Of a DNA stretch of 56,844 nt, positions 348-33,153 are shown one piece after another; within the stretch, counting starts at the first letter, position 1; every line of letters begins with the position of its first letter. The stretch spans positions 1-56,844 of IMG/VR virus record IMGVR_UViG_3300002307_001210. The stretch is one strand, 5' to 3'. Made by a program: the position numbers and the translations under genes. The DNA is from a virus. Its lineage: Duplodnaviria; Caudoviricetes. The notes under the pieces were generated by a model. The model made no database searches. It had not been told where the DNA came from and saw only the letters and a program-made list of their open reading frames with translations.

Positions 348-415
348 CTGATGCTCCTTCATAGCGTTAGAGTAGTTGGGGAGGTGAGAAACCCGCGAAC
401 TACATCTTTATTTAG
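348..415. ncRNA. Conserved two-hairpin element, copy 1, upstream of nuclease gene
   Basis: CTGATGCT/AGCGTTAG stem, then GTAGTT-G-GGG..CCC-GCG-AACTAC stem, then TATTTA. Homologous to 29262-29327 and 33002-33075. Confidence 0.65.
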
Positions 416-437
416 TCCGAGAAAGATAAATACTTCT

Positions 438-1055
438 ATGAGCAATAAAACGTTACCTGCTGATACGTTCTGGAATAGCGTGGACTTTGTTAGCATAGTA
501 GACACTATTCGCGGTGTCTACATGAGCGACGGGTCTATGTCTACCCTATTGGACTACGAGCGGGTCTTAGACGAAGCAGACTTATACGCATTCAAAAATT
601 GGATTATCGGAGAACTAGTAGACGGTCCGATCATCGGTAGATATTCCTGCAAATGCACTTTTATGTGGCCATATAAGCTAATGCCTGATCCAAGAGGGGC
701 ATTACGATTGCTAAACATCGGATGCAAAGTAAGCATCGGTAAGAGCGAGATTGAAGTTCCTGTGGAAGTCCTAGACTATGAAGATTTTGTTCCAGGCACA
801 CGGTACCCTAAAATGCATCCTAGAAAAGTATGGTTTGTTCAGGTCGAGATTCCACTAGAACTCATGGACGACATCAAAGAAGGATCTATCGATCTTGCTG
901 ATACGACTATTGACTTGTCCGAGATTGAAGACGCATACAACGAGGACCTTGACGATTCAACTGCTAAAGAAGGCACTGGCCCAGAAACTGCTGCTGATCA
1001 GGCGCAACCACAAGCCGCCGAACAACAAGGTGGACAACCGGCAGGTCAACTATGA
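438..1055 (+). CDS. Hypothetical phage protein
   Basis: Long ORF. Start moved to ATG 438, just after late promoter ATAAATA (426-432). Acidic, Q-rich tail. Confidence 0.6.
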   Translation: MSNKTLPADTFWNSVDFVSIVDTIRGVYMSDGSMSTLLDYERVLDEADLYAFKNWIIGELVDGPIIGRYSCKCTFMWPYKLMPDPRGALRLLNIGCKVSIGKSEIEVPVEVLDYEDFVPGTRYPKMHPRKVWFVQVEIPLELMDDIKEGSIDLADTTIDLSEIEDAYNEDLDDSTAKEGTGPETAADQAQPQAAEQQGGQPAGQL

Positions 1056-1594
1056 AAACATTAAACGAAAGCCTAGACTACATGGATATGAAAGGTCAGG
1101 TAGATAAGAAAATGACCGTTGATGAATATGCGGCTAAGATGGGCAAGGATAGTGATATCGTTACTCTGACATTCACCGTGCATTCACATCTTGCTGCAAA
1201 GGACCTATCATCTTGGTTTGAACGTGGATATGACTTCGTACTAGACTCTAGTGTCAGTGACGGAGAATTAGAACCAGGTGAATGGTTAGTATTCCTTGAG
1301 ATGGATCGTCGTATAGCAGTTCCTGATAGAATAATCAGACTGTTGACTGACCTAGAAACCCTTACTGGCAATGATATTGATGACTGGATCGTGGATATTG
1401 CAGGTACAGAAGTAAGTGCTAACGAAGAACTAATCCGAGACGAGATGATCCTAAACCCTAATGAATACAAGATGGAAAAAGAACAAGACGAGAAACTTGA
1501 CGAAGTCCGTCAGCTTGCTGGTCTATCTTTGAATAAAAATTATTATGTTGAAGACGAATATATCAAGAATCTCAAGGCAATTGCAAGAATTTAA
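1052..1594 (+). CDS. Hypothetical phage protein
   Basis: ATGA-coupled ORF, 180 aa, starts MKTLNES. Confidence 0.6.
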   Translation: MKTLNESLDYMDMKGQVDKKMTVDEYAAKMGKDSDIVTLTFTVHSHLAAKDLSSWFERGYDFVLDSSVSDGELEPGEWLVFLEMDRRIAVPDRIIRLLTDLETLTGNDIDDWIVDIAGTEVSANEELIRDEMILNPNEYKMEKEQDEKLDEVRQLAGLSLNKNYYVEDEYIKNLKAIARI

Positions 1595-1631
1595 GCTTGA
1601 CAACTCATATATAGTGTGTTAGTATACTAGA

Positions 1632-2444
1632 ATGGATCATTATAGCACATTGGGCGTTTCTCGCACAGCCTCTCCTGAAGAGATCAAAAAAGCATATCGT
1701 AAATTAGCGATGCAACATCACCCCGATCAGGGTGGAGACATCAACAAGTTTCACGCAATCAATGAAGCGTATGAGACGCTAGGCGATACTAATAAAAAGC
1801 ATCTATACGACAACCATTCCCCGCAGAATCCATTCGGACAAAACGGTGGATTCAGTTATACTTCAAACGGATTTGACTTCAATGACCTCTTCCGTCAAGC
1901 GTTCGGTCAGCGCGGCCCAAACCCCTTTGAAAATAGCCCGTTCAGACAGACCCAACAACTATATCGCACTAGGTTAGAGGTATCGTTGTTGGACTCATAT
2001 CGCGGTGAAGAAAAAGTGTTGCAGGTTGGCACCCCGACCGGCACGAGTGCAATAAAGATCAAAGTTCCGCCGGGAACCAATTCCGGAGATCAAGTCAGAT
2101 ACGACGGTGTGATTGACGGGGCACATCTTGTCATAGAATTTATTGTTTCTCCTGATCTAAAGTTTGATCGCAGGGGCAACGATCTATACTTTAATCTTCC
2201 TATATCTATCCTAGACTTAATTATAGGGACAACAATAGATTTTAGGACTATTAATGGAAATGTGTTGTCAGTAAAAATTCCACCTAGAACACAACCTAGT
2301 ATGCAGATCAAATTAGCAGGAGAAGGCATGCCTATCTCAAATAGCGGGAACTATGGTGACCAAATACTATTGCTTAAGCCTATCTTACCTGATAATATTC
2401 ACATTGATATCATAGACGCTATCATGCGAACTAGAAATAAATAA
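1632..2444 (+). CDS. DnaJ/CbpA-like co-chaperone
   Basis: J-domain with HPD motif (IKKAYRKLAMQHHPD), G/F-rich linker, DnaJ C-terminal domain, no zinc finger. Confidence 0.9.
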   Translation: MDHYSTLGVSRTASPEEIKKAYRKLAMQHHPDQGGDINKFHAINEAYETLGDTNKKHLYDNHSPQNPFGQNGGFSYTSNGFDFNDLFRQAFGQRGPNPFENSPFRQTQQLYRTRLEVSLLDSYRGEEKVLQVGTPTGTSAIKIKVPPGTNSGDQVRYDGVIDGAHLVIEFIVSPDLKFDRRGNDLYFNLPISILDLIIGTTIDFRTINGNVLSVKIPPRTQPSMQIKLAGEGMPISNSGNYGDQILLLKPILPDNIHIDIIDAIMRTRNK

Positions 2445-2466
2445 GTAACAGCAGTTTAAAAGGAAA

Positions 2467-4740
2467 TTGAAATTGAATAGTAGTCCAGAAATTGAGAATA
2501 TTATTGAGCGAGCAATTGACTCGGCTAAACAACGAAACCATCATTATTGCACGGTAGAACATCTACTCTGGGCTCTAGTGACACATCCTCCTTTTAAGAA
2601 GTGCCTCAATAGTTTCAACGTTGACACTGATCTTATGATCGGTGAGATTGAAGCATACTTGAACGCACTACATGCTATTGAGTCTAGTGAACCAAACGGT
2701 CAACCACGCAAGACGAATACTCTTGAGCGGGTCATGAATCGTAGCGTGACGCAGGTTCTATTTACTGGTCGTCAACAGATGATGACGATTGACCTCTATC
2801 TGAGTATCATGAATGAGGGTAGCACTCATGGTCATTATTTCCTGTTAAAGTATGGCGTCGCTAAGAATGAGTTTGTCGCTCACTGGCAGAAGACTTATAA
2901 GGGCGGCGACTTTTCTGGAACTATCACGCCTAATCAGGCTGACGAAATTCTTGAAGAATACACGATCAACCTGACCGCTCTTGCCCGTCAAGAGAAACTT
3001 GAGCCAGTTATCGGTCGCACTAAAGAGATTGATGACATCATCAATGTCCTCGCGAAGCGTTTCAAGTCTAATGTCCTGATGGTGGGGGACCCTGGTGTAG
3101 GCAAGACTGCTATCGCTGAAGGTATCGCCCAAGCAATTGTCAATGATGAAGTGCCTGATTTCCTTGAAGGATATGAATTGTATTCTCTTGAGATCGGTTC
3201 ACTACTCGCTGGTTCGCGTTATCGTGGCGACTTCGAAGAGAAGGTGAAGCAGGTTCTTGATGCACTTAATGTCAAGAAGAAGGCTATTCTCTTCATTGAC
3301 GAAGCACATACCATGCAAGGTGCCGGTAGTGCATCTAACGGATCAGTTGACTTCGCGAATATGATCAAGCCAGCGATAACTAAGGGTAATCTGAAGGTCA
3401 TCGCTTCTACTACTTGGGAAGAGTATTACGAATCCTTTGAAAAAGATCGTGCTTTGATGCGTCGTTTCTATCGTATCTCTATTGATGAACCGTCCGAAGA
3501 ATCTACTATTCGTATTCTCAGTGGTCTTTCAGCCCGTCTCAATGACTTCCACAGCGTGTCTATCTCTGAGGAAGCGATTGTAGCAGCGGTTGAATGTTCT
3601 GGTCGCTACATCCATGATCGTAAGAATCCAGACAAGTCTATTGATCTATTAGATGCTGCATGTGCGAAGCAGCGTGTTCTCATGAACGAAGGTGCGATCA
3701 TCACTAAACAGTTGATCCATGAGCAAGTAGAGAAGTTCACCGGTGTCCCTGCTGACAAACTGTCAGACGATAACCTTGATCGTATCAATATGCTTGAATT
3801 CAACGTCAAGAATAAACTCTATGGTCAGGACGAGACTGTAGATAAGGTTCTTGAGCGGGTTTATGTGTCGTTTGCTGGTATCGGCAACGACAAGAAGCCC
3901 ATCGCAAGTTTCTTGTTTCTTGGCCCGACAGGCACAGGTAAAACAGAGTTGGCTAAACTGCTGTCTAAGAATTTAGATATGCCCCTTCTCAAGTATGACA
4001 TGAGTGAATACGGCGAGAAGCACAGCGTAAGCAGTTTGATCGGTCCTCCCCCTGGATATGTAGGCTTCGGTGATTCACAAGTTCAAGGTGGACGCCTAAT
4101 TTCAGACTTGAGCAAGAATCCTCACTCTATTCTACTGTTTGACGAAGTTGAAAAGGCACACCCTGACATCTTCAATATCTTCCTTCAGATGTTGGATGAA
4201 GGTCGTGTCACCGGTTCAAACGGCAAAGAAGTGTCGATGAAAAACACACTGATCATCCTCACTTCAAATCTAGGATCACAAGACGGAGAGCGTAATAACA
4301 TCGGCTTCGGTGATCAGAATAAGACCGGCGAAGATGATAAGGCTCTCAAGCAGTTCTTTAAGCCCGAGTTCCGTAATCGTCTTGATATGGTCTGCAAGTT
4401 TGATAAGTTGGATATGTTATCCATCAAGAAGATTGTCGTCAAGTTTGTTGAAGAACTAAAGAAGCCTCTGCTCGAAAAGCACAATATCACGCTAAATCTG
4501 AGCGAGCCTGTTGTTGACTATCTCGCAGATAAGGGATATGATAGCAAGATGGGTGCAAGGCCTCTTGGTCGTAAGATTGATGAGATGCTCCGTGTTCCTC
4601 TCTCAAAGAAGATTCTCTTTGAGCGTATCAGCAATGCAAATGTGTTAGTATTATTGGAGAACAATGAGATCATATTTACGGTGACAAACAAGCAAGCAGC
4701 ACATGTTGGGGATGATGGCATCATTGAAATCGGAGGTTAA
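2467..4740 (+). CDS. clpA: ClpA-type AAA+ Clp protease ATPase subunit
   Basis: Clp N-domain, two Walker A motifs (GDPGVGKT, GPTGTGKT), Walker B (FIDEAH, LFDEVEK), IGF loop, GARPL. No long M-domain. Confidence 0.9.
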   Translation: MKLNSSPEIENIIERAIDSAKQRNHHYCTVEHLLWALVTHPPFKKCLNSFNVDTDLMIGEIEAYLNALHAIESSEPNGQPRKTNTLERVMNRSVTQVLFTGRQQMMTIDLYLSIMNEGSTHGHYFLLKYGVAKNEFVAHWQKTYKGGDFSGTITPNQADEILEEYTINLTALARQEKLEPVIGRTKEIDDIINVLAKRFKSNVLMVGDPGVGKTAIAEGIAQAIVNDEVPDFLEGYELYSLEIGSLLAGSRYRGDFEEKVKQVLDALNVKKKAILFIDEAHTMQGAGSASNGSVDFANMIKPAITKGNLKVIASTTWEEYYESFEKDRALMRRFYRISIDEPSEESTIRILSGLSARLNDFHSVSISEEAIVAAVECSGRYIHDRKNPDKSIDLLDAACAKQRVLMNEGAIITKQLIHEQVEKFTGVPADKLSDDNLDRINMLEFNVKNKLYGQDETVDKVLERVYVSFAGIGNDKKPIASFLFLGPTGTGKTELAKLLSKNLDMPLLKYDMSEYGEKHSVSSLIGPPPGYVGFGDSQVQGGRLISDLSKNPHSILLFDEVEKAHPDIFNIFLQMLDEGRVTGSNGKEVSMKNTLIILTSNLGSQDGERNNIGFGDQNKTGEDDKALKQFFKPEFRNRLDMVCKFDKLDMLSIKKIVVKFVEELKKPLLEKHNITLNLSEPVVDYLADKGYDSKMGARPLGRKIDEMLRVPLSKKILFERISNANVLVLLENNEIIFTVTNKQAAHVGDDGIIEIGG

Positions 4741-5380
4741 ACCTAACTTATATTTTAACAAGTATAAGTATAGGGCCACAATTGAAATTGAGAATCTGCG
4801 TTTTGCACACCTTAGTGAAACATTTGATCAGTTTTTGGAGTTTTTTAGAAAGGAATCTAACGTTTCTTCTACTAGATACTGGGCTAGAGCCGTCGTTCCT
4901 AACAGTTCATCTGAACTTGTCAGGTTACGAAGCACCATAGAATACCGCAATAGAGTTCATGATATAGAAGGCGTTGATATCAGAAAGGAATATGACAGTA
5001 TATCTTTCTATAGCAATGACCTTAATCTTCTGAAAGAGGTATGGACATTCAATCCAAAATCATGTATTACCGAAATAAATCTCATGCCCGCTGGTGTAAT
5101 GACATTTGCTAAGGAACCGATATATCAATACAGGACCTATCTAGTCAATAGAAAAATTGAAAATAATTCAAAGGAAGAACTTCTTGACTTCGTGAAAAGA
5201 ACTACAGAAGTAGAACCATCTAACTCACTTGAACGCTGGTTAGTTCATCCACGACGATGGTCACATTCTTATTCTAGCGACAAATATTTTCTATCATATG
5301 ATGATCCTAGAATATTGACTATGTTAGGTCTTATTTGCCCTGAAATTATTGGAAAATCTTATAAATTAGAAAAGCGTTAG
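4703..5380 (+). CDS. Hypothetical protein
   Basis: 225-aa ORF. True start is probably ATG near 4712-4715. Confidence 0.55.
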   Translation: MLGMMASLKSEVKPNLYFNKYKYRATIEIENLRFAHLSETFDQFLEFFRKESNVSSTRYWARAVVPNSSSELVRLRSTIEYRNRVHDIEGVDIRKEYDSISFYSNDLNLLKEVWTFNPKSCITEINLMPAGVMTFAKEPIYQYRTYLVNRKIENNSKEELLDFVKRTTEVEPSNSLERWLVHPRRWSHSYSSDKYFLSYDDPRILTMLGLICPEIIGKSYKLEKR

Positions 5381-5417
5381 TATTGAATAAATACTCTAAT
5401 AAAACGGAGTATTTAAT

Positions 5418-5582
5418 ATGGCAAGAGTCCTTGAAGATGTACTGGTGCTCAAACTAAGTAAATTAGTAAAAGACGATTCAAATGACGAAAGCATTGTCAC
5501 TGAAGAGATACATGCTGCATTAGAACAAGTAGCCACAGAATTAGTTGGCGAAGGCATAATTGTAGAGGTCGTGAGAGCGTAA
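5418..5582 (+). CDS. Small hypothetical protein (54 aa)
   Basis: Below ORF-track cutoff. MARVLEDVLVLKLSKLVKD..., with GGAG RBS and ATAAATA late promoter at 5387. Confidence 0.6.
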   Translation: MARVLEDVLVLKLSKLVKDDSNDESIVTEEIHAALEQVATELVGEGIIVEVVRA

Positions 5583-5935
5583 TGTCTCAGGGCGTAACTC
5601 TACAATTATTGCCACAAACACCTTACCATAATCCAGGTAACGGCGCGCCCTACACTGTTACGGGAAATGCTCAACCTGCAGCTTCCTATTATCTTGGAAA
5701 TCAGAACTTGCAGACGGTAAACATCTCTACAACGATGTGTACAGGAAACATCATCATTGAAGCTACCCTAGTAAGTAGACCACTAGATTCAGATTGGTTT
5801 GAAGTTTACACTCTTCCAACAAGCAACACTAATACTTCAATGTATACCAATATTACCGGTACCTTTGTGTATATGAGGGCCGTAATTCAAGACTTCAGCT
5901 ACGGCGGAGTTAATTACATTCAGCTATCCTATTAA
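5582..5935 (+). CDS. Hypothetical protein, possibly virion-associated beta-rich protein
   Basis: T/N/Y-rich 117-aa ORF, TAATG-coupled in a late operon. Confidence 0.5.
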   Translation: MSQGVTLQLLPQTPYHNPGNGAPYTVTGNAQPAASYYLGNQNLQTVNISTTMCTGNIIIEATLVSRPLDSDWFEVYTLPTSNTNTSMYTNITGTFVYMRAVIQDFSYGGVNYIQLSY

Positions 5936-5948
5936 AGAAAGAGAAAAT

Positions 5949-6134
5949 ATGGAAACCACAATCAATATCAAGGCACAATTTGAAGCATTTGTTGCTGAGA
6001 ATGAGAAGTTTGAGAAGGGTAATGCAGCAGCAGGCACCCGGGCCCGTAAGGCATTAGGTGATCTCGCTAAGTTATGCAAGACCCGTCGCAGTGAAATCAC
6101 TGACACCAAGAACGCACGCAAAGAAGAAAAGTAA
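5949..6134 (+). CDS. Histone H1-like (Hc1-type) small DNA-binding protein
   Basis: EKGNAAAGTRARKAL motif typical of bacterial Hc1-like proteins. Confidence 0.65.
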   Translation: METTINIKAQFEAFVAENEKFEKGNAAAGTRARKALGDLAKLCKTRRSEITDTKNARKEEK

Positions 6135-6865
6135 TGTTTTTAACTGAGGGCGGAAATGTTGTACCAGGAGCGGTCTCTCTTAAGAGAGAAAACTTTGCTA
6201 CGGCTATGAAAAACCTTCAGGATATCTTGCCGCGTGGATTAAATCTATATCCAATCGGTAGTGCAGGGAAGAAAGAGATATCAAGTGATATTGATGCCCT
6301 CGTTGATGCAGAAGAATTAATGAGGGCATTTCCTGCCAAGGATCTAAAGTCTAGTAGAAAAGAACTAGAAGATTTCTTCAAGAGTAAAGGTCTATTCTCA
6401 GCAAGAACCGGGGTTAGTGTTCATGTCGGCGTTCCTACTGGAAACGGCGATGACATCGTTCAAGTAGACCTAATGGCTGTAGAAAATGCAAAAGAAGCAC
6501 AACCATTGCATACACATGACTATTCTGATCCAACTATGAAGGGCGGAACATTACATGCAATGTGGGCTGATCTAGCTAAAATGAGCAAGGTTCCAGGACA
6601 CGATAGTCTTATGATGAGTCCCTATAAAGGGCTAGTAGACAGAGAAACCAGAGAATTGATCACTAATGATAAGGATAAGATCGCAAAGATCATCATAGGA
6701 CCATCTGCTTCGGCAGATGATATGGGTAATCCTACTAAGATGTTGAAGGCATTACAATCATATCCTGAAAAATATAAAGAGATCAAGCAGAAATACTCTA
6801 CGGATGATCCTATTACAGAAGGTAGCAGGGAGTGGTTCCGTAATACATTGGATCGGTTAAGATGA
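6134..6865 (+). CDS. Pol-beta superfamily nucleotidyltransferase-like protein
   Basis: IGSAGKKEISSDID (hGS..DhD) plus a third Asp in VQVDLM. Confidence 0.6.
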   Translation: MFLTEGGNVVPGAVSLKRENFATAMKNLQDILPRGLNLYPIGSAGKKEISSDIDALVDAEELMRAFPAKDLKSSRKELEDFFKSKGLFSARTGVSVHVGVPTGNGDDIVQVDLMAVENAKEAQPLHTHDYSDPTMKGGTLHAMWADLAKMSKVPGHDSLMMSPYKGLVDRETRELITNDKDKIAKIIIGPSASADDMGNPTKMLKALQSYPEKYKEIKQKYSTDDPITEGSREWFRNTLDRLR

Positions 6866-9099: not shown

Positions 9100-9156
9100 T
9101 TTCACCCCTCTTGCACTGTGTAAATATAATTATAGTTTGCAACAGAAGAGGACTAC

Positions 9157-10107: not shown

Positions 10108-10129
10108 TTGCAGTCACAGGCAAATGATT

Positions 10130-10160
10130 GGGGGTCACAGAAATGTGGCCCCTTTTTTAT
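10130..10160 (+). terminator. Rho-independent terminator
   Basis: GGGGTCACA-GAAA-TGTGGCCCC hairpin followed by a T-run. Confidence 0.8.
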
Positions 10161-10195
10161 TATATAACTAAATAATTCAGCAATAGGATATAAAA

Positions 10196-11446: not shown

Positions 11447-11463
11447 ACTATAGGATCAAATCA

Positions 11464-12999: not shown

Positions 13000-13000
13000 T

Positions 13001-15742: not shown

Positions 15743-15885
15743 TGTCACATCTAACAGATGTAAATAAAACCTACTCGCAACATCTATTACATGCATGGAA
15801 GATTGCAGCAATACTCATAGTTCACGGTATTATTCCGAATATCTGGAAAACAAAAGCTAGCGATATTATTAATGATATCTCCTAA
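15739..15885 (+). CDS. Small hypothetical protein (48 aa)
   Basis: Manual translation MMSHLTDVNKTYSQHLLHAWKIAAILIVHGIIP..., ATGA-coupled. Confidence 0.5.
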   Translation: MMSHLTDVNKTYSQHLLHAWKIAAILIVHGIIPNIWKTKASDIINDIS

Positions 15886-15971
15886 AGGAAAACATTAGAT
15901 AGTGATATCCTTAGCGATATTCTTAGCGATCTTGAACGCAAATGAATAAATAGACTATAGGAATATTTAAC

Positions 15972-16412: not shown

Positions 16413-16413
16413 T

Positions 16414-18441: not shown

Positions 18442-18449
18442 TTCTAATC

Positions 18450-20528: not shown

Positions 20529-20680
20529 AAAGATTAGCAGGTATCACTGATCACCGGGGAATAAATACTGTATCGGAGCCCGGTAGTCGTGTCATGGCTC
20601 GGCCCGGTACTGAAGAATGGTTCAAGCGTCCAGTAAATGATATGCAGATGCCAACCGGGTTTAGGGGTCGTAAGCGATGA
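20510..20680 (+). CDS. Small hypothetical protein (56 aa)
   Basis: Manual translation MNIDELKRLAGITDH...PGTEEWF...GRKR, coupled to the next gene. Confidence 0.6.
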   Translation: MNIDELKRLAGITDHRGINTVSEPGSRVMARPGTEEWFKRPVNDMQMPTGFRGRKR

Positions 20681-22213
20681 GAGCGTTTGAATTTCTGACT
20701 GAAGGATCGGGCCCTCACTTTAGGCCAACTCCTGAACAACAACAAGAGATTGCTGACCTGTATGCATCCGGGTTTAGCGGGGATGATATCGCTAAGGAAT
20801 ATAAAGCGAGCAAAGGTACAATATCTAGGTTCATTAGGAATCTTCCTAATTTCAAAGAATTAAGACAACAATTTTATAAAGCCAGAGAAGAACAAGGATT
20901 ACAAACCGGCCCAAAAGGCATTACTCCTGATCAAGTTCAACAAATGGCTAATAATTTTGCACTTGGTAAAAATTTTAATCAATTGAACAAAGAGTTTGGT
21001 ATTTCCCCTGAAAACGTTCTGGGAAAATTAAAAAAGTTGCCTAATTTTGAAGAACTATTACAGCAAAACACCAAGGCTAGACAAGAGCAAGGATTGCTTA
21101 CACTAGACGATTTGGGGCGTAAAGACACAACTCCGGCGCAAATTGATCAGATGGCAAAAGAATATGCTAGTGGGAAATCTACTAGACAAATAGCTAAGAT
21201 GTTTAATCTAGCCCAGAGCGTTGCGATTATGCATTTAGCAAAAAGACCAGATTGGGAAGAACTCAAGTTTCAAAGTCTCACCAATCGTTCTAAAAAACTC
21301 GGTGGAACACAATCATTGACAAGTCGCGGTATCAATAAGCCAGGCAGTAAAGGCATTCATGCTATCAGAAGAACCGGAAGCCCTAGCGGAAGTGTGTTTG
21401 AAGATGAAATTATGAGATCATTTGAATTCATGACTGAAGTTTCTGCTGCTGATTTGGATCAGTGGAACCCAGAACGGTTTCAAACCCAACAAGAAGGTGA
21501 TCCTATCGGTATGGTATCTGATAAACAAGCGTTTAGTAGCAATCTACCAAGCTGCTTGGACATGCCAATCAAGTTACCCGGCACCTCAATAAAGAACCCA
21601 TATAAAAATAAAGGTGTGATTGAGTTCGTGCAGCGTTCACTACAACACAATCAAAAGGTCAATCCACGTTTTGATCAAAGTTATATCTATCTCACAGTTG
21701 ATCAACGCATGGTTGAAGGTAACAAAACTCATCGTAGGGGCGGCGCACACTTTGATGGTATGCAGGGTGAACGCTACAAAATCAAGCTGCCTATGGATCA
21801 AAATTACATCGTAAGCGATTACAATCCTACTCATCTGTATAGCCAACCCTTTGATGCTAGAGGATTAAGCACCAAGCATCATAATTGGTTTCATGAACTT
21901 GAAAAACAAGTAGACAAATCCCGCACTTTCGTTCCTGATCCATACGTGATCTATTTTGTATCAGGATATCATATGCACGAAAGTCCCGTCGCCCCTGAGA
22001 CAAGAATGCGAACATTCATGCGTATCAGCGTTGGATACAAGCCAGGTGGTCTACCAGGCGAAACACCTAATCCATTATTACCTACTCCCCGTTTAGATCG
22101 TGATCGTGAGATTCCTGGAAATCTAAAGAAAGATTTAAAAGTTGGAACAGCACCTGATCCAAATAAAATAATCGGGGTAAAAAGTCGTAAGCGATGAGAG
22201 CGTTTGAATTTCT
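20667..22213 (+). repeat. 30-bp exact direct repeats bounding one gene
   Basis: GTCGTAAGCGATGAGAGCGTTTGAATTTCT at 20667-20696 and 22184-22213. Confidence 0.9.
20677..22197 (+). CDS. Fusion of triple HTH-like repeat module and possible 2OG-Fe(II) oxygenase-like module
   Basis: Three repeats of Q..Q(M/I)A..(Y/F)A.G. Internal second leader MRSFEFMTE at 21412. HFD...H...R pattern in the C-terminal half. Confidence 0.45.
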   Translation: MRAFEFLTEGSGPHFRPTPEQQQEIADLYASGFSGDDIAKEYKASKGTISRFIRNLPNFKELRQQFYKAREEQGLQTGPKGITPDQVQQMANNFALGKNFNQLNKEFGISPENVLGKLKKLPNFEELLQQNTKARQEQGLLTLDDLGRKDTTPAQIDQMAKEYASGKSTRQIAKMFNLAQSVAIMHLAKRPDWEELKFQSLTNRSKKLGGTQSLTSRGINKPGSKGIHAIRRTGSPSGSVFEDEIMRSFEFMTEVSAADLDQWNPERFQTQQEGDPIGMVSDKQAFSSNLPSCLDMPIKLPGTSIKNPYKNKGVIEFVQRSLQHNQKVNPRFDQSYIYLTVDQRMVEGNKTHRRGGAHFDGMQGERYKIKLPMDQNYIVSDYNPTHLYSQPFDARGLSTKHHNWFHELEKQVDKSRTFVPDPYVIYFVSGYHMHESPVAPETRMRTFMRISVGYKPGGLPGETPNPLLPTPRLDRDREIPGNLKKDLKVGTAPDPNKIIGVKSRKR

Positions 22214-23864
22214 AACAGAAGAAGTAGGCAGGGTCATTGACCTCACAAAGAACTATCCACATTATTCCACCCTTAAAGGCAAGATACTTGACATATCTCC
22301 TAAGGGTAAGTATAAGATACAGATCATTGACGCTGATATAATTCCTGGCAAGAAAGTGTCAGTAAAGGTTGGCGACACAGTTGCTATCAATGCAAACTAT
22401 TTAAGACAAGCTAGACGCATTGATGAATCTACTACAGTCAGGCTAAAAGATTTAGCTACCGTTTCTACAGATTCCCCTGAAGCAGATTTCTGGATCATTC
22501 GCAAAGGTAGCGAGAAAACAGTAGGAACACCAGTAAAACAATATCAACCACAATATATAGGTGTAAAGGTCGTAAAAACTAACGTATTAGAACCAAACTA
22601 TCTTTATTACATGATTATGCACCTACATAATCAAGGATATTTTAAGTCTAGGGCCATCGGAATAACTAACCTAGTCAACATAAGAGTCGCGGATGTTGCT
22701 GATATTTCATTTGGATTACAAGAAGGCATTAACGAAGACTGGAAGAAAACTCTAGGTGGAATCGCTGCTGCTGGAGCATTGGCACTGCCAGGTAACATGA
22801 TGCATAAACCTGGAACTGATCAACTTCCTCCCGTAGCAGTAGAGAAGGCCGATCCTGCAGTGGTTAAGCAAGCAGCGGCATCATTGGAAACCACATACGG
22901 AAATGCTTTGAAAAGGGCTTCTAGTTCCATCAAGAACAAGGCAGAGCGAGCCCAGTTTATAGCACAATGTGCCCATGAGACACAAAATTTCTCAACCATG
23001 AAAGAATTCGGCGGAAACCTTGACTTCAGAAAATATGATATTAGATTTAATCCTAGAATGGCAAATGCACTAGGTAACGATAAACCAGGTGATGGCGCCC
23101 GTTATCACGGAAGAGGCTTCATTCAGTTGACTGGCAAAGATAATTATCAGAGAGTGGGCAGAGAGTTGGGTCTTCCGTTAGAGCAGAATCCGCAATTAGC
23201 AGAACGACCAGATGTCGCTGCAAAAGTGGCACTTTGGTATTGGCAGAATAGGGTAAAACCTAAGGTGAGTAATTTTAAGGATACAAAAGAGGTAACTGCT
23301 CCTATCAATAGTTCTTTGCATGGACTAGATGATAGACACCAGAAGTATCTTGCCTACAGTGAATTACTAGGTGGCGAACCTAGCCCTGGTCAAGGTCTCA
23401 AAGAACATGAGATGGACAATGCTGCAGGATGGGGCGCCACACCTAACAATCGTAATGTTGATTATATGGGATTGCGTGTAATGATGCAGCCTTCAATTTT
23501 TCTAAAATTAGCAGCAGAGTTGAAAGAACCAACGAGTGCGAAAGGTATCATGTCGCACCTAGAACAGGGCGGACATATCGCTTCTCCTTTTCTTATGATA
23601 AACATACCTGATGAATGGGATGACGGAGATTTCTCTACACCAGCTAGGGTCACTGGACATGAAGGCAGAAATCGCATGAAAGCACTACAAGAACTTGAAG
23701 GTACCCAGCATCAAGAAGTTCATATTTTTCCGAGAGGTCTCCGTAATAGACATATGACTCCGGAGTTCTTGAAGAATCTAAACAAGTGGCTCATTCCGGA
23801 ACGGCAGGAGCAGCCTATCTCAGGCCCCTTCTGGAGTGATGTTTTAAACACCAAGACTAAATAG
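22194..23864 (+). CDS. Mosaic protein containing a GH19 (chitinase/endolysin) domain
   Basis: FIAQCAHET and YHGRGFIQLTGKDNY GH19 motifs. Flanked by an HsdS-like segment and a ParB-like GHEGRNR segment (both weak). Confidence 0.7.
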   Translation: MRAFEFLTEEVGRVIDLTKNYPHYSTLKGKILDISPKGKYKIQIIDADIIPGKKVSVKVGDTVAINANYLRQARRIDESTTVRLKDLATVSTDSPEADFWIIRKGSEKTVGTPVKQYQPQYIGVKVVKTNVLEPNYLYYMIMHLHNQGYFKSRAIGITNLVNIRVADVADISFGLQEGINEDWKKTLGGIAAAGALALPGNMMHKPGTDQLPPVAVEKADPAVVKQAAASLETTYGNALKRASSSIKNKAERAQFIAQCAHETQNFSTMKEFGGNLDFRKYDIRFNPRMANALGNDKPGDGARYHGRGFIQLTGKDNYQRVGRELGLPLEQNPQLAERPDVAAKVALWYWQNRVKPKVSNFKDTKEVTAPINSSLHGLDDRHQKYLAYSELLGGEPSPGQGLKEHEMDNAAGWGATPNNRNVDYMGLRVMMQPSIFLKLAAELKEPTSAKGIMSHLEQGGHIASPFLMINIPDEWDDGDFSTPARVTGHEGRNRMKALQELEGTQHQEVHIFPRGLRNRHMTPEFLKNLNKWLIPERQEQPISGPFWSDVLNTKTK

Positions 23865-23890
23865 TAGCATAAAATTAGGGGAACTCGTTC

Positions 23891-26548: not shown

Positions 26549-26572
26549 ATATCTAACACAAAGGATTATTCT

Positions 26573-26947
26573 ATGAAAATCAGAGACCTACTGAGCGAAA
26601 GCCAAATTGACGACCTTGACCACGACGACGAACCAGAAGTTGAACCTGATCAGGAGACGATCAAACCGCTCATGGTGCAACTGCGTTCAGTATATAACCT
26701 TGTCAAAAAGTATCGTGATTTCCAGAAAAATCCTGAAGTTAAAGAGATCCTAGCAACTCATCCTATCATCTTTAGGAATTCAGAAGCAGTAGTCATTCCC
26801 ATCGGAGAGATGGCTGACATGTTGAATATCTATCCCATGCTCATCCCTCACATGCGTGAGAAGATGCAAGCACAAGCATGGGAGAACCCAGAAGCATTCC
26901 ACAAAACGGTTGCTCAACTTAAAGCAGCGGTGGCTAATCGTCGGTAA
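26573..26947 (+). CDS. Hypothetical protein
   Basis: MKIRDLLSES leader, ATAAATA upstream. Confidence 0.55.
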   Translation: MKIRDLLSESQIDDLDHDDEPEVEPDQETIKPLMVQLRSVYNLVKKYRDFQKNPEVKEILATHPIIFRNSEAVVIPIGEMADMLNIYPMLIPHMREKMQAQAWENPEAFHKTVAQLKAAVANRR

Positions 26948-27067
26948 AAGAATCATTTTACCCATATTATTTGACGTATACACCAAATCATGATAAATAT
27001 AGTTTGTACTAGTAAAAGGATTTGCATTTAGTGTGAATCCTTTTGTAGTCTTTAAAAAGGAAAATAT

Positions 27068-27634
27068 ATGAATAAGTTACTTACGATTGCAGCATTCGCG
27101 TTAGTTGCACTTACTACCCCAGCAGCAGCTGGTACTTTAACCGGAGAATATCGTTCTGCCTCAAAGCCAGATGTCGCTGGAGCTAACTTTGCTGTCTCTG
27201 GTTTTAATGTAGGTCCAGTAGCGATTGGTGCAGAAGTTCAAACTGCACAGGCACCGCACCGCGGAGCAGTGTCTGCTCTATATTCTGTTAACGCTACCAA
27301 GACGCTCACTTCAATCAGCGGTTTTGTCCCTCAAGTAGGAGTTGAATTCGGTAAGAATGCTTCTACCGGTAAGAACTTCAATTTCTGGGGCGTAGATGCC
27401 GGTGTGTCACACGCTGTAGCAGGTCCAGTATCTGCATCAGTTGGTTATCGCCATCGCGAAGGATTCACTGACCGTAAGATGCAAGAAAAGCGTCTTGTTG
27501 TAGGTCTATCCTACGCAGTAACTGATGCTACTTCGGTCGGCGTCAACTACTATCGTTATAACGAAAAGTTTGTTCCTAAGAAGACCAGTGGATCTTCTGA
27601 CGTATTTGGATTGGCTGTATCACACAGCTTCTAA
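27068..27634 (+). CDS. Outer-membrane beta-barrel protein
   Basis: Signal peptide, alternating amphipathic strands, C-terminal Phe (AVSHSF, BAM signal). Confidence 0.7.
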   Translation: MNKLLTIAAFALVALTTPAAAGTLTGEYRSASKPDVAGANFAVSGFNVGPVAIGAEVQTAQAPHRGAVSALYSVNATKTLTSISGFVPQVGVEFGKNASTGKNFNFWGVDAGVSHAVAGPVSASVGYRHREGFTDRKMQEKRLVVGLSYAVTDATSVGVNYYRYNEKFVPKKTSGSSDVFGLAVSHSF

Positions 27635-27654
27635 TAAAACTTATTTAGTTTATA

Positions 27655-27694
27655 ATAAGCGGCGGAGATTGATTTCTTCGTCGCTTATTTTTTT
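27655..27694 (+). terminator. Rho-independent terminator
   Basis: ATAAGCGGCGGAGA...TCTTCGTCGCTTAT hairpin followed by a T-run. Confidence 0.75.
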
Positions 27695-27727
27695 GGATGT
27701 GTGGTAAAAACTGTAAATAGTGTGCAA

Positions 27728-28276
27728 ATGAAAATTGGATTAAGTCAAAGAATCGTAAGTAAAAACGGCAGAACCTATGATGCAACAGATCATGGTTGGT
27801 ATACGCTATTAGCTGGACATAATCTATTTTTTCTACCCAACACAACCAATCAAGATTTTGACCTGATCGCAGACAACATTGATTCTCTTATCATTACTGG
27901 TGGAGATAGCACTGAAATCAGAGAAGACGTTGAACTTGCCCTAATAGCTAAAATGATAGAACGAAAAAAACCAGTAGTAGGAATCTGCCAAGGTGCACTA
28001 TACATTGCTGAGAGTCTAGGAAGCAGCATTCAACCTATTCCCAAACATACAGGCGTAGATCATTACATAATGTATCACGGAGAAGCTATAAAAGTTACCA
28101 GCGATCATGAGTTAGGAATAACAAAAATACATGATTCCGGAAAGATATTATGTCTAGCAGATACCGGAGAGATAGAAGCATTCATAGATAGCAATCTTGC
28201 AGGAGTGATGTGGAATCCTGAACGAATGGAAAAGCCTTGGATTCCTCCTGAGATCGCTTATATACTACGGATTTGA
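27728..28276 (+). CDS. Class I glutamine amidotransferase / peptidase C26-like protein
   Basis: LIITGG, GICQG nucleophile elbow, GVMWNPE. Start at MKIGLS. Confidence 0.7.
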   Translation: MKIGLSQRIVSKNGRTYDATDHGWYTLLAGHNLFFLPNTTNQDFDLIADNIDSLIITGGDSTEIREDVELALIAKMIERKKPVVGICQGALYIAESLGSSIQPIPKHTGVDHYIMYHGEAIKVTSDHELGITKIHDSGKILCLADTGEIEAFIDSNLAGVMWNPERMEKPWIPPEIAYILRI

Positions 28277-28287
28277 TAAATATATTC

Positions 28288-28674
28288 ATGTTAATAGAAG
28301 ATATCACCCGTGAACGTGATTTAGACCTGGATGCTGAGGTGAAGAAATTTGCCGAGTGGGCTGGAAAGCGATTGAACATACAATCATTACCAGAGATTGA
28401 ACTGAGTCAAGATACCGAAGATGCTCAAGATAATCACCATACTGGTTCTCATGTTGAAGGCTCTGGTAACATCTGGGTCTATGCAAAAAATCGTAATCTC
28501 GTAGACATGCTAAGGACCGTATTCCATGAGTTGGTCCATGTAAGACAAGGGGAGATCGGAATGATCAAACCAGGTGATAGTTATCCAGGTAGTCCTATTG
28601 AGGCTATGGCAGACATGCTTGCTGGTAAGTACCTTAAGATATATGGAGAGCAAAACCATCATATCTTCCAATAG
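28288..28674 (+). CDS. Putative zinc metallopeptidase-like protein
   Basis: [11 protein letters not shown] (HExxH) plus a downstream E..A. Confidence 0.55.
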
Positions 28675-29260
28675 TCCACCCTCCGCACGATTTCTTTCTT
28701 CCAGCTACCATATTACTTAGGTTGCCTTGCGGTAGACTATACTTTATTCTCAGTTGATATTTGGTGCAAGTTTCGGTTTTACCATTCATATGAACAAAAG
28801 TGTGAATGGTTTGATCACTACGATATTCTCTCTGTTCATGTATACCTTTATTCCAAGGAATATGACCTGCTCTGAATACGTTTTTCATATTTGCTATATG
28901 AGTTTCTGATTTAGGCTTACCCTTAGCAGCTTTGCTTTGATTAGATTTCCACTCATCAGTCCTAATGACACCATCAAGTCCCTCACCACCATCTGTCTTG
29001 TTATGAAGTATGCCGGTTCCTAAATCCTTTCTCCCATACCATCGTATCATTCTACGTTCAATAGCAAATGCTCCGATTGAAGTTAGGTTGGTTTCTAAGA
29101 TTATTATTCTGTCACTAGGTGGAGTAGAAATCCCTTTATAATAGTTATTCTTTGGGGATTTATAACGATGTTTGTCTGTGGCCCGTGATCCAGTACCCTT
29201 ACCGATATAATAAGGGGTCCCATCTTTTCTCAGGTAGGCATACACATAATAAATAGACAT
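28634..29260 (-). CDS. GIY-YIG-like homing endonuclease
   Basis: [44 protein letters not shown]-like tail. Start at ATG 29260 after AAGGAG. Confidence 0.75.
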
Positions 29261-29261
29261 G

Positions 29262-29327
29262 CTGATTGCTCCTTTAAGCATTAGAGTAGTTGGGTGTTAG
29301 CGCACCGTGAACTACATCTTTATTTAG
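29262..29327. ncRNA. Conserved two-hairpin element, copy 2
   Basis: CTGATTGCT/AGCATTAG stem, GTAGTT-G-GGTG..CACC-GTG-AACTAC stem, then TATTTA. Confidence 0.65.
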
Positions 29328-29392
29328 CCCAAAGCTATTGCTTTTGCAACAAATCCCAAGTATATTAAGTATTGTCAGATAAAGGAGAATAC

Positions 29393-29653
29393 ATGTCTAC
29401 TAGAACTTTTAACAACGAAGCCAAGACCAAACTTACACAACTGGTAAATGAGGGTATGGCTGTAATGCAAGAGATTGAAACCCTCAATGAAGGTCTCAGC
29501 GACACTGTTAAGGCTATCGCAGAAGAACTTGAAATTAAACCGAGTGTTCTAAAGAAGGCGATCCGTATTGCCCACAAGTCTCGTCTTGCTGAAACTAATC
29601 AAGAAAATGAAGACTTGAATGAAATTCTGGAGACCGTCGGTAAAACTTACTGA
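29393..29653 (+). CDS. Small helical protein, possibly DsbA-like dsDNA-binding protein
   Basis: Coiled-coil followed by KPSVLKKAIRIAHK; directly upstream of the DNA polymerase; strong RBS. Confidence 0.45.
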   Translation: MSTRTFNNEAKTKLTQLVNEGMAVMQEIETLNEGLSDTVKAIAEELEIKPSVLKKAIRIAHKSRLAETNQENEDLNEILETVGKTY

Positions 29654-32358
29654 TGTACGTTGATGCTATCCATGACAATAAGAATGACCGCATTCATGTG
29701 GTAGAGCGTACTTCTGAAGGTAAACGAGCGTATAAAGAGTATTCAACTAACTACACCTTATACTACGCTGATCCTAAAGGCAAGTATCGTTCTATTTTCG
29801 GTGATCCGTTGTCTCGTTTCTCTACCCGTAAGAGGGCAGAGTTTGAGAAGGAACGCAGGATCCACTCTAACAAGAAATTATTTGAGAGTGATGTAAATGT
29901 CCTATTCAGATGCTTGTCGGATAACTACCTAAATATTGATCCACCGAAACTTCATACTTGTTTCTTTGACATTGAAGTGGACTTTGATCCTGAACGGGGG
30001 TTTAGTCCAACTGATGATCCATTCAACGCAGTAACAGCAATCTCTTGCTATCTTGATTGGTTAGATCAACTCGTTACGCTTGTCATGCCTCCTAAGCATA
30101 TGACAGACGAAACTGCAAAAGAGTTGACAGCGGATTTTCCAAACTGTTTTCTGTTTCGCAGTGAAATTGAAATGTTTGAGACCTTCTTTGACCTAATTGA
30201 AGATGCTGACGTTTTGACTGGTTGGAACTCAGAAGGATACGACATCCCGTATACGGTTAATCGTGTCACTCGTATCATGTCAAAAGATGATACACGCAAG
30301 TTCTGTCTGTTAGGGCAACTTCCGAAAGTCCGAACATACGAACGATTCGGTAAGGAAGAAAAGACTTACGATCTTGTCGGTCGTATTCATCTGGACTACT
30401 TGCAACTCTACAAGAAATACAACTACGAATCTCGTCACAGCTATTCACTTGATTCAATTGGTGAGTATGAATTAGGCGAGCGTAAGACTCAGTATGAGGG
30501 CACACTGGATCAGTTGTATAATAAGGATTTCAAGACTTTCGTAGAATATAACAGACAAGATACGATGCTTGTCGCGAAGATTCACAACAAGTTGAAGTTC
30601 CTTGAACTCGCTAATGCACTAGCACACGAGAACAGCGTGTTGCTGCCGACTGTTATGGGCTCAGTGGCAATGATTGAGATGGCGATCTTCAACGAAGCAC
30701 ATGCTCGTGGAATGATCGTTCCTGATAAGCAACGTAAAAAGTCTTATAGCGTTGAGCAGCAAGCAGCAGGTGCTTATGTTCTTCCACCTAAGGTGGGTAT
30801 GCACGAGTATCCAGGAGCAGTCGACCTCAATTCGCTTTATCCATCAGACATTCGTGCGTTGAACATGTCTCCGGAGACTATCGTAGCACAAGTGCGACAG
30901 ACTCTAACTGATCAGTATATGCTTGAGAAAAGCTTGAAGCTTGCCAAAGAAAAGCGTAAGAAGAAGAATGGAGACGATGCAGAAGCAGTGACTGGCGCTA
31001 TTCTATGGGAAAATCTATTTGGTTCTCTGGAATACACAGCTATCATGAATCAAGAACGGGGCACCTTGCTCACTGTTGACTATGAAGATGGTCGTAGTGT
31101 AGAGATGACTGCTGCCGAAATCTGGAAGATGGTCTTTGATAGTAACAAGCCTCTGTTGCTATCTGCGAATGGTACGATCTTTACTTATGAGAAAGAAGGG
31201 GTCATCCCTGGACTTCTAACGAGATGGTACACAGAACGAAAAGCCCTTCAGAAGCTAGCTAAAGAATCATACGGTACTGACATGTATGAATATTATGACA
31301 AGCGACAACTTGTTCGTAAGATTCTGCTGAACTCAACGTATGGCGCACTTCTGAACGAACACTGCCGATTCTATGACAAGCGTGTCGGTCAATCTGTTAC
31401 TCTATCTGGTCGCCAGATCGTGAAACACATGATGAGCCAGATCAATGAGATAATCGCAGGTGAGTATAAACACGACGGTGAAGCAATCATCTACGGTGAC
31501 ACTGACTCATGCTATTTCACTGCATTTCCTATTCTAAAGGAACAGATCAACAACGGCGAAGTTGAATGGTCTAAGGATATGTGCATAGAACTCTATGACA
31601 ACATCGCAGATCAGACTAATAACAGTTTCTCTGCATTCATGGAGAAAGCATTTCACTGTCCGAGGAAGAATGGTGAGATCATCAAAGCTGGACGAGAACT
31701 TATCGGAGAACGTTCCATTTTCATCACTAAGAAGCGGTATGCTATCAATATCTTTGATAAAGAAGGCAAGCGTAAGGACATAGAAGGTAAGACAGGCGAG
31801 ATTAAAGCGATGGGTCTTGATCTCAAGAGAGCAGATACTCCTAAGTATGTTCAAGAGTTTCTAATGGAGATTCTCGTCATGGTCCTCGGAGGAAAGCAAC
31901 GAGATGAAGTCATCGTCAAGATCAAGGAGTTTAAGAACTGGTTATCCGAACAAGATAGCTGGACTAAAGGTTCTCCGAAGTCAGTCAACAATCTAACCAA
32001 TCATACGATCAAGTTTGAGAAGACCGGCTTGTGTTCTGTGGGTCATGCGAGAGCAGCGATTAATTACAATTACTTGCGTAAGATGAACGGTGACAACTAC
32101 AGTCAGAAGATAGTTGATGGGATGAAGGTTATCGTCTGTAAATTAAAAACTAATCCCTTAGGCTTCACTAGTATCGCCTATCCTACAGATGAACTTAGAC
32201 TTCCGCAATGGTTCCTTGAGCTACCTTTTGATGATAAGGACATGGAACGTATTCTCGTAGACGAGAAGATTGACAATCTCTTGTCAGTGTTGAACTGGGA
32301 TATTCGTAGTAATACTGATACAAATTCAACTTTTGATGATTTATTTTCATTTTCGTGA
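29653..32358 (+). CDS. Family B DNA polymerase (gp43-like)
   Basis: Exo motifs [17 protein letters not shown]; polymerase motifs [28 protein letters not shown]. Confidence 0.95.
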
Positions 32359-33000
32359 TTTGCAATTATCAAAATGATACCGTTTCATATTTGATATTCC
32401 ACCGCAAGTAGAACAGTGAGGACATATGATTTCTACTTGCGGTCCTTTAAGAATACCCTTAAGTTTAATGGATCTTTTAATTTTATCAGCTTCACTCATT
32501 GGTTTTCCAATTTTAGCATCTGATAACTTTTGCTTATGTTCAGATGAAAAAACTTTACCGTAATTACTTTTACTTATTTTTTCTGCCACCTCAGGATTTC
32601 TGGCAGGGTTGCCTTCACCTTGCATGAATAAACTGTGAGCATGTCGTTGACCATCACTGAAAGTTCTGTTCTTCATTTTAGTTAATGCTGATTTAGTATG
32701 TTTATATCCCGGAGATCCCCCTCCTCCATATGACCTATTCAAAAGTGTTCCTAATCCTAAGTCTTTCCTCCCATACCAATAAATTAGCCTTCTTTCAATA
32801 GCCCATGCACCTAATTCAGACAATTGATGCTCACATATTATTATATGATTTTTGTTGCTAGGTACAGGAATAGAGGGAGAATGATACACCCATGCTCTTG
32901 GGCCTATTCCTTTTCCTATATAATAAACTGTTTCATCTTCTCCGAGATAGGCATATACATAGAATCCTACGGGAGGGTTCTTTCTGTTATAAATAGTCAT
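32347..33000 (-). CDS. GIY-YIG-like homing endonuclease with NUMOD3 and C-terminal CPHC motif
   Basis: [47 protein letters not shown]. Confidence 0.75.
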
Positions 33001-33001
33001 G

Positions 33002-33075
33002 CTGATGCTCCTTGTTCAAAATTTAGCATTAGAGGGGGTGGGAACTGCAATTCCGCGACCCTCACTTCTATTTAT
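33002..33075. ncRNA. Conserved two-hairpin element, copy 3
   Basis: CTGATGCT/AGCATTAG stem, GGGGGT-G-GGAA..TTCC-GCG-ACCCTC stem with compensatory changes, then TATTTA. Confidence 0.65.
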
Positions 33076-33124: not shown

Positions 33125-33153
33125 TTGACTTTTGTAATATATTCCTCTATTAT
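33125..33153 (+). promoter_or_regulatory. Sigma70-type promoter
   Basis: TTGACT-17-TATTAT. Confidence 0.5.

Follow-up and report, generated by a model that had tools for sequence, protein, structure and literature searches.

A covarying two-hairpin cassette with facing late-type promoter boxes at the 5' ends of homing endonuclease genes in uncultured jumbo phages: a candidate cis-antisense RNA

A 56.8-kb fragment of an uncultured phage, IMG/VR record IMGVR_UViG_3300002307_001210 (56,844 nucleotides (nt); hereafter the window), carries three copies of a two-hairpin element, each abutting the start of a homing endonuclease gene (HEG) on the opposite strand. The element is genuine, occurs widely and covaries strongly. 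The hairpins belong to a portable, presumably regulatory cassette of ~85 bp that constitutes the 5' end of free-standing HEGs—with two T4-late-type TAAATA boxes that point toward each other over about 75 bp, each 5–7 nt from the base of a terminal hairpin. The reading we favor, to which the sequence evidence lends roughly an even chance, is that these boxes are two convergent late-type promoters, one of them making a ~70-nt cis-antisense RNA over the 5' untranslated region (5'UTR), the Shine–Dalgarno sequence (SD) and the AUG of the nuclease mRNA.

A family of two-hairpin elements in phage genomes and metagenomes

A first-pass annotation of the window had described three copies of a structured motif, and all three were recovered where it had placed them: they scored 83.8–86.9 bits with the covariance model R1, against 11.1 bits for the next-best match (56.8 kb, both strands, filters off). 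Copy 1 (336–414, + strand, 83.8 bits) comprises a + strand TAAATA box at 336–341, a CAT complementary to the nuclease ATG at 344–346, hairpin 1 at 348–370 (348–355 pairing with 363–370, with the anti-SD in the loop), hairpin 2 at 372–403 and, within a U-rich tail, TATTTA at 409–414, the complement of a minus-strand TAAATA. The same order is found in copy 2 (29250–29326, + strand, 86.0 bits), with the box at 29250–29255, CAT at 29258–29260, hairpin 1 at 29262–29284 (one bulged T), hairpin 2 at 29286–29315 and the complement of the minus-strand box at 29321–29326. Copy 3 (32990–33074, + strand, 86.9 bits) contains the box at 32990–32995 (the full TATAAATA), CAT at 32998–33000, hairpin 1 with a 15-nt loop at 33002–33032, hairpin 2 at 33034–33063 and the minus-strand box complement at 33069–33074. 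The outer stem of hairpin 2 is altered in a compensatory manner in copy 3, and the inner stem covaries among the copies, both as originally described.

To examine the distribution of the element, an 18-letter degenerate pattern derived from the cassette core, which fixes part of the sequence, was run against IMG/VR viral contigs and returned at least 121 matching stretches. Among the matches listed, 99 were distinct and carried the full element; a further 15 did not, of which 14 had matched by chance and one was a remnant reduced to hairpin 2. The remnant, on viral contig locus L105, retains hairpin 2 and the outer box without hairpin 1 or a nuclease start, and looks like a scar from the loss of a nuclease gene. 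Model R1 was built from 98 full copies, and searches with it covered the window, five long phage records and a collection of contigs. The long records hold 13 copies (a 360-kb record with terminal repeats, rated 100% complete), 13 copies (333 kb), 8, 7 and 2 copies, respectively; the two with 13 copies each are jumbo-phage genomes close to complete. Pattern-found and model-found copies together amount to at least 127 distinct element sequences, and the family thus extends far beyond the window. Eight further copies lie on contigs binned into freshwater and other metagenome-assembled genomes (MAGs). Two copies, at 72 and 83 bits, were found on contigs L181 and L197 (148 kb and 43 kb) of a Haliscomenobacter sp. 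MAG (Bacteroidota); these could be a clue to the host or mis-binned phage. In a 524-kb viral record (G002), the cassette matches at 174952–175038 and 522505–522591 score identically and lie 347.5 kb apart, so this record may be a concatemer or hold a very long repeat.

The element has no counterpart in Rfam. Rfam 15 gave 0 matches in the window at gathering thresholds, and the best scores in E-value mode were 9.5–16.8 bits against thresholds of 45–90. Likewise, a blastn search (distant mode, E up to 1e-3) with a 91-nt copy against 50,697 phage records returned no match.

Covariation and strand assignment of the fold

In the alignment of 98 copies, 99.2% of 1862 cells pair in the two-hairpin structure of the + strand, compared with 90.7% after column shuffling (0 of 500 shuffles reached the observed value) and 33–52% when partners were slid. 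The covariation score was 0.266 versus 0.105, above all shuffles. Because the search pattern had fixed part of the sequence, the pairing count was repeated on a second set of 35 distinct model-found copies from whole genomes, which lie outside the pattern choice but whose alignment was fitted to the model, which favors the structure: here, 98.9% of cells pair, 10 of the 19 pairs have changes on both sides, and covariation reached 0.433 versus 0.182. The covariation first described from three copies thereby holds in a larger alignment. One detail of the original description needs revision: the site read as a G / GYG internal loop is present, but it is better read as an isolated pair between two bulged G residues, with G:C in 24, G:U in 6 and A:U in 5 of the 35 copies. 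A fifth inner-stem pair of hairpin 2 was also tested and dropped as inconsistent.

The distribution of non-canonical pairs points to one strand. As the first-pass annotation had noted, these are mostly G·U on the + strand (205 cells, versus 8 A·C cells, equivalent to G·U on the mRNA), and G·U occupies the third pair of hairpin 1 in 98/98 and 35/35 copies. The mean folding energy of hairpin 1 is -5.3 kcal/mol for the + strand and -2.9 kcal/mol for the mRNA, the + strand being the more stable in 86 of 98 copies; for hairpin 2 the means are -9.9 and -9.0 kcal/mol. The G·U bias and the hairpin 1 energies together place the conserved fold on the strand antisense to the nuclease, and we consider this assignment secure. 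Behind hairpin 2 follows a U-rich tail, with a mean of 6.9 T in 12 nt.

These observations bear directly on the suggestion that the element is a switch in the mRNA that sequesters the ribosome binding site. They contradict it: the sense version of hairpin 1 is weak, the SD lies mostly within its loop, and no stable sense hairpin masks the SD. A broader version of the idea—an ordinary mRNA leader in which the hairpins gate translation on the nuclease mRNA, as for I-TevI, segB and mobE of T-even phages and in the proposal of Dassa et al.—draws on what precedes the gene: a box of the late type, a 5'UTR that is long (about 75 nt) and a strong SD. Hairpin 2 also folds on the mRNA, where it would sit at the 5' end, and precedents are described in passages of PMC2988022 and PMC2677866. 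However, all 205 of the G·U cells on the + strand turn into A·C mismatches on the mRNA, and the sense hairpin 1 leaves the SD mostly in its loop. Moreover, the minus-strand TAAATA reported beyond hairpin 2 was confirmed, 5–6 nt outside that hairpin in all three window copies and in the consensus. With the promoter box outside both hairpins, late transcripts would not escape them, unlike in the T4 design. We therefore regard a plain mRNA leader as quite improbable.

A second TAAATA box inside the nuclease reading frame

The first-pass annotation had overlooked a second TAAATA, on the + strand within codons 2–4 of the nuclease gene, which faces the minus-strand box. This inner box is exact in 117 of 125 parsed copies and ends 5–7 nt before hairpin 1 in 114 of those 117, while the distance from the start codon to hairpin 1 is 1, 2 or 3 nt in 73, 35 and 9 copies, respectively. 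In 19 copies the register between box and start codon differs, and the distance from box to hairpin is still 5–6 nt. Synonymous sites within the box are fixed as well: the Ile at codon 3 is ATT in 70/70 copies (against a genome usage of 50%), and the third base of codon 2 is T in 75/76, whereas the third base of the Tyr codon, just outside the box, varies (TAT in 65 and TAC in 9 copies). A leader of the form M-x-I-Y (or M-Y-L, or M-I-F-I) is common to nucleases of unrelated folds, and the position of the box in codons 2–4 would explain this shared start of otherwise unrelated proteins. In the family of nucleases linked to copies 2 and 3, the leader lies upstream of the catalytic strand, directly or via a short linker.

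The genomic distribution of the hexamer was analyzed in G001, a complete genome with 13 cassettes. TAAATA occurs at 1.87 per kb per strand in intergenic DNA and at 0.26–0.32 in coding DNA, with 0.65 expected from composition—a three-fold enrichment between genes and an about two-fold depletion within them, on both strands. An antisense box in the first 10 nt is found in only 9 of the 416 genes of this record, all of them cassette-linked nuclease genes. In the window, TAAATA stands ~20–30 nt before many genes. ATAAATA has, in addition, been predicted to be the late promoter in CBB and GAP32, RaK2-like phages that both encode a gp55-like sigma factor, according to the relevant passages of PMC5259590. 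TAAATA thus acts as a true signal in this lineage, although the genes it precedes could not be identified as specifically late from their PHROG labels.

One cassette on unrelated homing endonucleases

All 109 distinct copies that were parsed adjoin a start codon on the opposite strand, and the linked open reading frames (ORFs) are mostly of homing-endonuclease type, in line with the gene association first described. We scanned 70 of the 97 linked ORFs of at least 80 amino acids (aa): every complete or near-complete one at a locus with long flanks (61), plus 9 from genome loci. Pfam matches of homing-endonuclease type (E up to 0.01) were obtained for 43 of the 70, comprising 17 HNH_3, 9 HNH, 2 TnsA-like and 4 weak GIY-YIG or SegE matches, the rest being NUMOD3, I-TevI or I-HmuI DNA-binding modules. 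Among the 27 without such a match, 3 are the window's own ORFs, which have PHROG matches; of the other 24, 17 match homing-endonuclease-type PHROGs and 7 match none, six of these aligning with the I-TevI-like family. In G001, the cassettes sit on nuclease-like ORFs in 13/13 cases.

The motif is accordingly not specific to GIY-YIG genes, as had been assumed from the window; it also heads HNH, HNH_3 and TnsA-like nuclease genes, and the cassette serves at least three unrelated nuclease folds. The wider idea of a covarying, nuclease-associated motif that marks a family of portable cassettes is supported by both the fold statistics and the nuclease link. Single-linkage BLAST clustering was of no use for classification because it merged 96 of the 109 linked ORFs, probably by way of C-terminal DNA-binding modules that they have in common. 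At the 3' ends of 66 nuclease genes, a k-mer search for a common DNA motif retrieved only a coding motif.

In the window, each of the three copies adjoins a minus-strand ORF, as first reported. HEG 1 (2–346, minus strand), whose 3' end is cut by the window edge, starts M-I-I-Y and matches PHROG 314 (E = 1e-4). HEG 2 (28634–29260, minus strand) is a GIY-YIG-like gene of the YVYAY...YYIGKG type that starts M-S-I-Y and matches PHROG 15526 (7e-22) and PHROG 314 (2e-8). HEG 3 (32347–33000, minus strand) is its paralogue, in which a 12-aa M-T-I-Y... leader precedes the catalytic strand. PHROG matches group all three with homing endonucleases, and no Pfam family matched any of the three. The statement that the nuclease of copy 1 belongs to a different subfamily holds: it shows no BLASTP similarity to nuclease 2 (E = 2.2), whereas nucleases 2 and 3 are 53% identical across the first 95 aa. 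Fold predictions support a GIY-YIG fold for the window nucleases, more weakly for the family of copies 2 and 3. For the copy-1 family, a complete homologue (L026) is predicted to resemble the I-TevI catalytic domain (1mk0 and 1ln0; probabilities of 0.98 and 0.85, TM 0.64–0.66). A PDB profile search with this family found no match at E up to 1. The copy-2/3 family gave the weaker match, to GIY-YIG PD-T4-3 (probability 0.97) and the UvrC GIY-YIG domain, with a PDB profile E of 0.002. Two further homing-endonuclease-like ORFs in the window, at 38717–39556 (minus strand, PHROG 655) and 42972–43781 (+ strand, HNH PHROG 559), are without cassettes and have plain TAAATA promoters.

The presence of one cassette on unrelated folds implies modular exchange, and this lends some weight to an explanation at the level of DNA. 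The ~85 bp would then act as a homology patch for swapping nuclease genes (in the manner of the PeSL elements of T4-type phages), as an operator bound by the nucleases, or as a hairpin in single-stranded DNA. Truncation has left nine linked ORFs with 4–61 aa; the cassettes of the seven that were rescored with the model lie in the normal range (78–95 bits), and cassettes next to ORFs of 4–49 aa are still intact at such scores. Autorepression by I-TevI at its own late promoter is also known (PMC2988022, in the passages concerned). Homology patches and duplex operators, however, need neither compensatory changes nor a G·U bias on one strand, and a single operator common to three unrelated nuclease families is not expected. 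A DNA-level role is in our judgment improbable as the principal function, although a + strand single-stranded hairpin is compatible with the sequence and a DNA module could coexist with an RNA function.

Orientation of neighboring genes

All neighboring genes in the window are on the + strand, and the element had been tied to insertion antisense to its neighbors. This does not hold more widely: of 76 copies examined, 49 have the neighboring gene on the structure strand and 27 on that of the nuclease, and for the 13 copies of G001 the numbers are 8 and 5. Many related copies are directly followed by TTGACA or TAAATA promoters for the next gene; TTGACA is found only in some, and always beyond the cassette. 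In the window, just past copy 3, a sigma-70-like promoter (TTGACT-17-TATTAT, 33125–33153, + strand) serves the next + strand gene.

Neighbor orientation bears on the possibility that the element is only a terminator or insulator. Hairpin 2 and the U-tract would then stop + strand transcripts antisense to the nuclease, including read-through from neighbors, with hairpin 1 steadying the 3' end and no dedicated small RNA involved. The U-rich tail agrees with such a role, as do the structure-strand neighbors in the window and in 49/76 copies; the next-gene promoters right behind many copies also resemble the stem-loop-plus-promoter layout of PeSLs (as outlined in parts of PMC2839356). However, the same strand keeps the fold in the 27/76 copies (5/13 in G001) with nuclease-strand neighbors, where there is no flanking transcript to stop, and a pure terminator role therefore fails as a general rule. 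It also leaves unexplained the inner TAAATA with its 5–7 nt spacing and synonymous fixation, as well as the sequence conservation of hairpin 1. A terminator without a small RNA thus seems unlikely, if worth keeping in mind. Since the structure strand is independent of neighbor orientation, an antisense RNA would need a promoter of its own.

A putative cis-antisense RNA over the nuclease start

Antisense RNA was one of several options listed in the first-pass annotation, and it is the best fit among them because pairing is conserved on the + strand only and because a + strand promoter box is present. We propose that the outer box would drive the nuclease mRNA, starting at the base of hairpin 2, and that the inner box would drive an opposite-strand RNA of ~70 nt, starting at the base of hairpin 1. 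The latter would begin with hairpin 1, whose loop displays an anti-SD, continue into hairpin 2 and its two bulged G residues, and end in a U-rich stretch; it would be fully complementary to the 5'UTR, SD and AUG of the mRNA. It may restrain nuclease translation or trigger cleavage of the duplex, as IS10 RNA-OUT does for transposase and SymR for SymE. That transcription begins at the inner box and stops at hairpin 2, and that the RNA represses the nuclease, are all steps that we infer. Of the features that define antisense control, an opposite-strand promoter at or inside the 5' end of the target is found at the level of the motif only, and a stable conserved fold is found on the antisense strand.

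Several observations weigh against this proposal. The inner box is not perfectly kept, since 8 of 125 copies have a one-base variant (TAAGTA, TTAATA or TATATA), and in 22 copies box and start codon shift together by 1 nt, so that the spacing is not fully independent of the start codon. Because the box lies within coding sequence, it could reflect an mRNA-level need just past the AUG. Both boxes are of the same promoter class, and the timing logic is not evident; convergent promoters could also act by transcriptional interference rather than by RNA pairing. Hairpin 2 folds almost equally well on the mRNA strand and would be a modest terminator—its energy is moderate, and an A-C precedes the U run, which starts 2–3 nt past the stem. 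A simple consensus terminator scan did not call it, and the U-tract is the complement of the outer promoter box, so that the two signals overlap. The cassette is, moreover, missing from 8 of 21 nuclease-like ORFs in G001 and from the two further HEG-like ORFs of the window. Finally, copies are related by descent or gene conversion, and their counts do not represent independent events.

The cis-antisense proposal could be extended to a genome-wide governor of copy number. The antisense RNAs of ~13 copies would act in trans on all nuclease mRNAs via the shared SD, AUG and hairpin 1 sequence (multi-copy inhibition), a dedicated RNA-binding protein of phage or host would dock on the invariant G·U and the two bulged G residues, and one regulatory RNA would have been standardized, by the phage or by a nuclease guild, for three unrelated superfamilies. 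We consider this extension a speculative and rather unlikely one. The potential for pairing in trans in G001 is moderate, the longest identical run between copies having a median of 11 nt (range 5–36).

Two other roles were rejected. A guide RNA like HEARO or omega RNA does not agree with three unrelated nuclease folds carrying the same cassette, and a peptide-coding role fails since the ATG in CTGATGCT is missing from CTGATTGCT variants.

Comparison with known regulatory systems

A literature search found no description of an antisense-folding cassette on HEGs. The known kind to which the proposed RNA would belong is the cis-antisense RNA on a selfish gene; what is new is the setting. The comparisons that follow refer to the cited passages of each source. 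In IS10, RNA-OUT is a 69-nt cis-antisense RNA that blocks ribosome binding with an effect proportional to copy number (PMC5006887). By analogy, the cassette would place the start region of a selfish gene under a short, stably folded antisense RNA from a convergent promoter, as in the RNA-OUT/RNA-IN pair of IS10/Tn10, and copy-number-dependent action in trans is conceivable with up to 13 copies in the genomes searched. Unlike IS10, the cassette would control a nuclease instead of a transposase and use phage late-type boxes as promoters, and two hairpins with a conserved bulged-G motif are present; furthermore, the overlap would span the whole 5'UTR, one cassette heads unrelated gene families, and the system is known from sequence alone. 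A parallel for the inner box is SymR/SymE of E. coli, in which the SymR promoter is embedded in the first codons of the toxic symE ORF and can be knocked out by silent mutations, SymR repressing translation (PMC1891008). The cassette likewise appears to have an antisense promoter box inside the first codons of its target, in this case recognized from its sequence; SymE/SymR differs in being a single chromosomal, SOS-regulated locus with sigma-70 promoters, whereas the cassette is dispersed in multiple copies in phages.

Among phage HEGs, I-TevI, I-TevII, I-TevIII, segB and mobE of T-even phages and Aeh1 have a sense-strand hairpin that sequesters the ribosome binding site, with the late promoter inside the hairpin (PMC2988022). 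The cassette genes share with them a late promoter of the TATAAATA type and structure around the SD, but in the cassette it is the antisense strand that conserves the pairing, hairpin 1 is weak as a sense hairpin around the SD, and the boxes lie on either side of the hairpins; neither a stable sense hairpin masking the SD nor a late promoter inside it is found. In the nearest printed account, Dassa et al. (2009; PMC2677866) examined the 5'UTRs of GIY-YIG and Vsr-like nuclease genes in ocean and lake metagenomes (GOS 'fractured gene' loci) and described hairpins in 15 of 16. Ten of those carry TATAAATA, and two conserved motifs pair together, which was read as a translational hairpin on the sense strand. 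Metagenomic phage-like loci (some from freshwater), free-standing genes of GIY-YIG and PD-(D/E)xK type and a late-promoter box are common to both sets, and their motif may be the same cassette, on a comparison by description and gene context rather than by sequence. The passages in question mention no antisense fold, second box or covariation analysis. The original claim that the element goes beyond what is known has to be qualified accordingly, as the complementary 5'UTR motifs of Dassa et al. possibly represent the same element.

The PeSLs of T4-type phages are dispersed promoter-plus-stem-loop cassettes of ~100 bp; they contain the SD and start codon and move together with accessory genes (PMC2839356, PMC4122927). 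The present element resembles them as a dispersed conserved cassette common to unrelated accessory genes (HNH, HNH_3, GIY-YIG and TnsA-like). PeSLs differ in that their promoter is a sigma-70 early one and lies, like their stem-loop, on the same strand as the gene, and in flanking ORFans instead of nuclease genes; the cassette holds TAAATA boxes and no sigma-70 early promoter. Finally, CfrI of cyanophage S-PM2, an antisense RNA of about 225 nt that spans the junction between an endonuclease gene and psbA (reviews PMC2984593, PMC12197685), is an antisense RNA tied to an HEG in a T4-like phage, as is the putative RNA here; unlike CfrI, which is a single locus, the cassette is a repeated 5' element.

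Phage lineage and genomic context of the window

The window encodes a T4-type DNA polymerase (29653–32358), whose closest cultured relatives are Sinorhizobium phage Phosso, at 48% aa identity, and Agrobacterium phage Atu_ph07, at 46%; the GAP32/CBB/RaK2 group comes next (42%). The phages that carry the cassette are uncultured jumbo T4-like ones and form a clade with ties to Atu_ph07 and RaK2. A megablast search with 4.7 kb from the window returned only a 36-nt match. This stretch (32356–32391) is the last 36 nt of HEG 3, encodes the C-terminal ...RYHFDNCK... motif, and matches T4-like coliphages and Shigella phages (VR7, VR25, SP18 and others), with 100% identity in ten of the 11 records and 97% in the remaining one; its site is the junction of a mobile nuclease gene with pseT. 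A related WHGDKCK-like C-terminal coding motif recurs on cassette-linked nucleases of both HNH and GIY-YIG type.

Two other loci deserve mention. Upstream of a virion structural protein gene (438–1055, PHROG 12928), TAAATA ends 5 nt before the ATG, without an SD (region 427–440), and this gene may produce a leaderless late mRNA. The adjacent ORFs at 20677–22197 and 22194–23864, of ~500–550 aa each, begin with identical codons (GTCGTAAGCG-ATGAGAGCGTTT), share one upstream motif and look like tandem paralogues.

Implications for selfish genes in large phages

No selfish elements are commoner in large phages than HEGs, and, to our knowledge, containment of their toxicity is known only for a few T-even genes. 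If our reading is correct, the cassette would represent a new and abundant RNA family without an Rfam entry and with unusually clear covariation, and would be the first shared antisense-RNA brake across HNH, GIY-YIG and PD-(D/E)xK homing nucleases. Its design—two facing late promoters around 75 bp—would be compact and testable. The cassette could also serve as a ready marker for free-standing nuclease genes in metagenomic jumbo phages, and as a natural part for the tight control of toxic genes.

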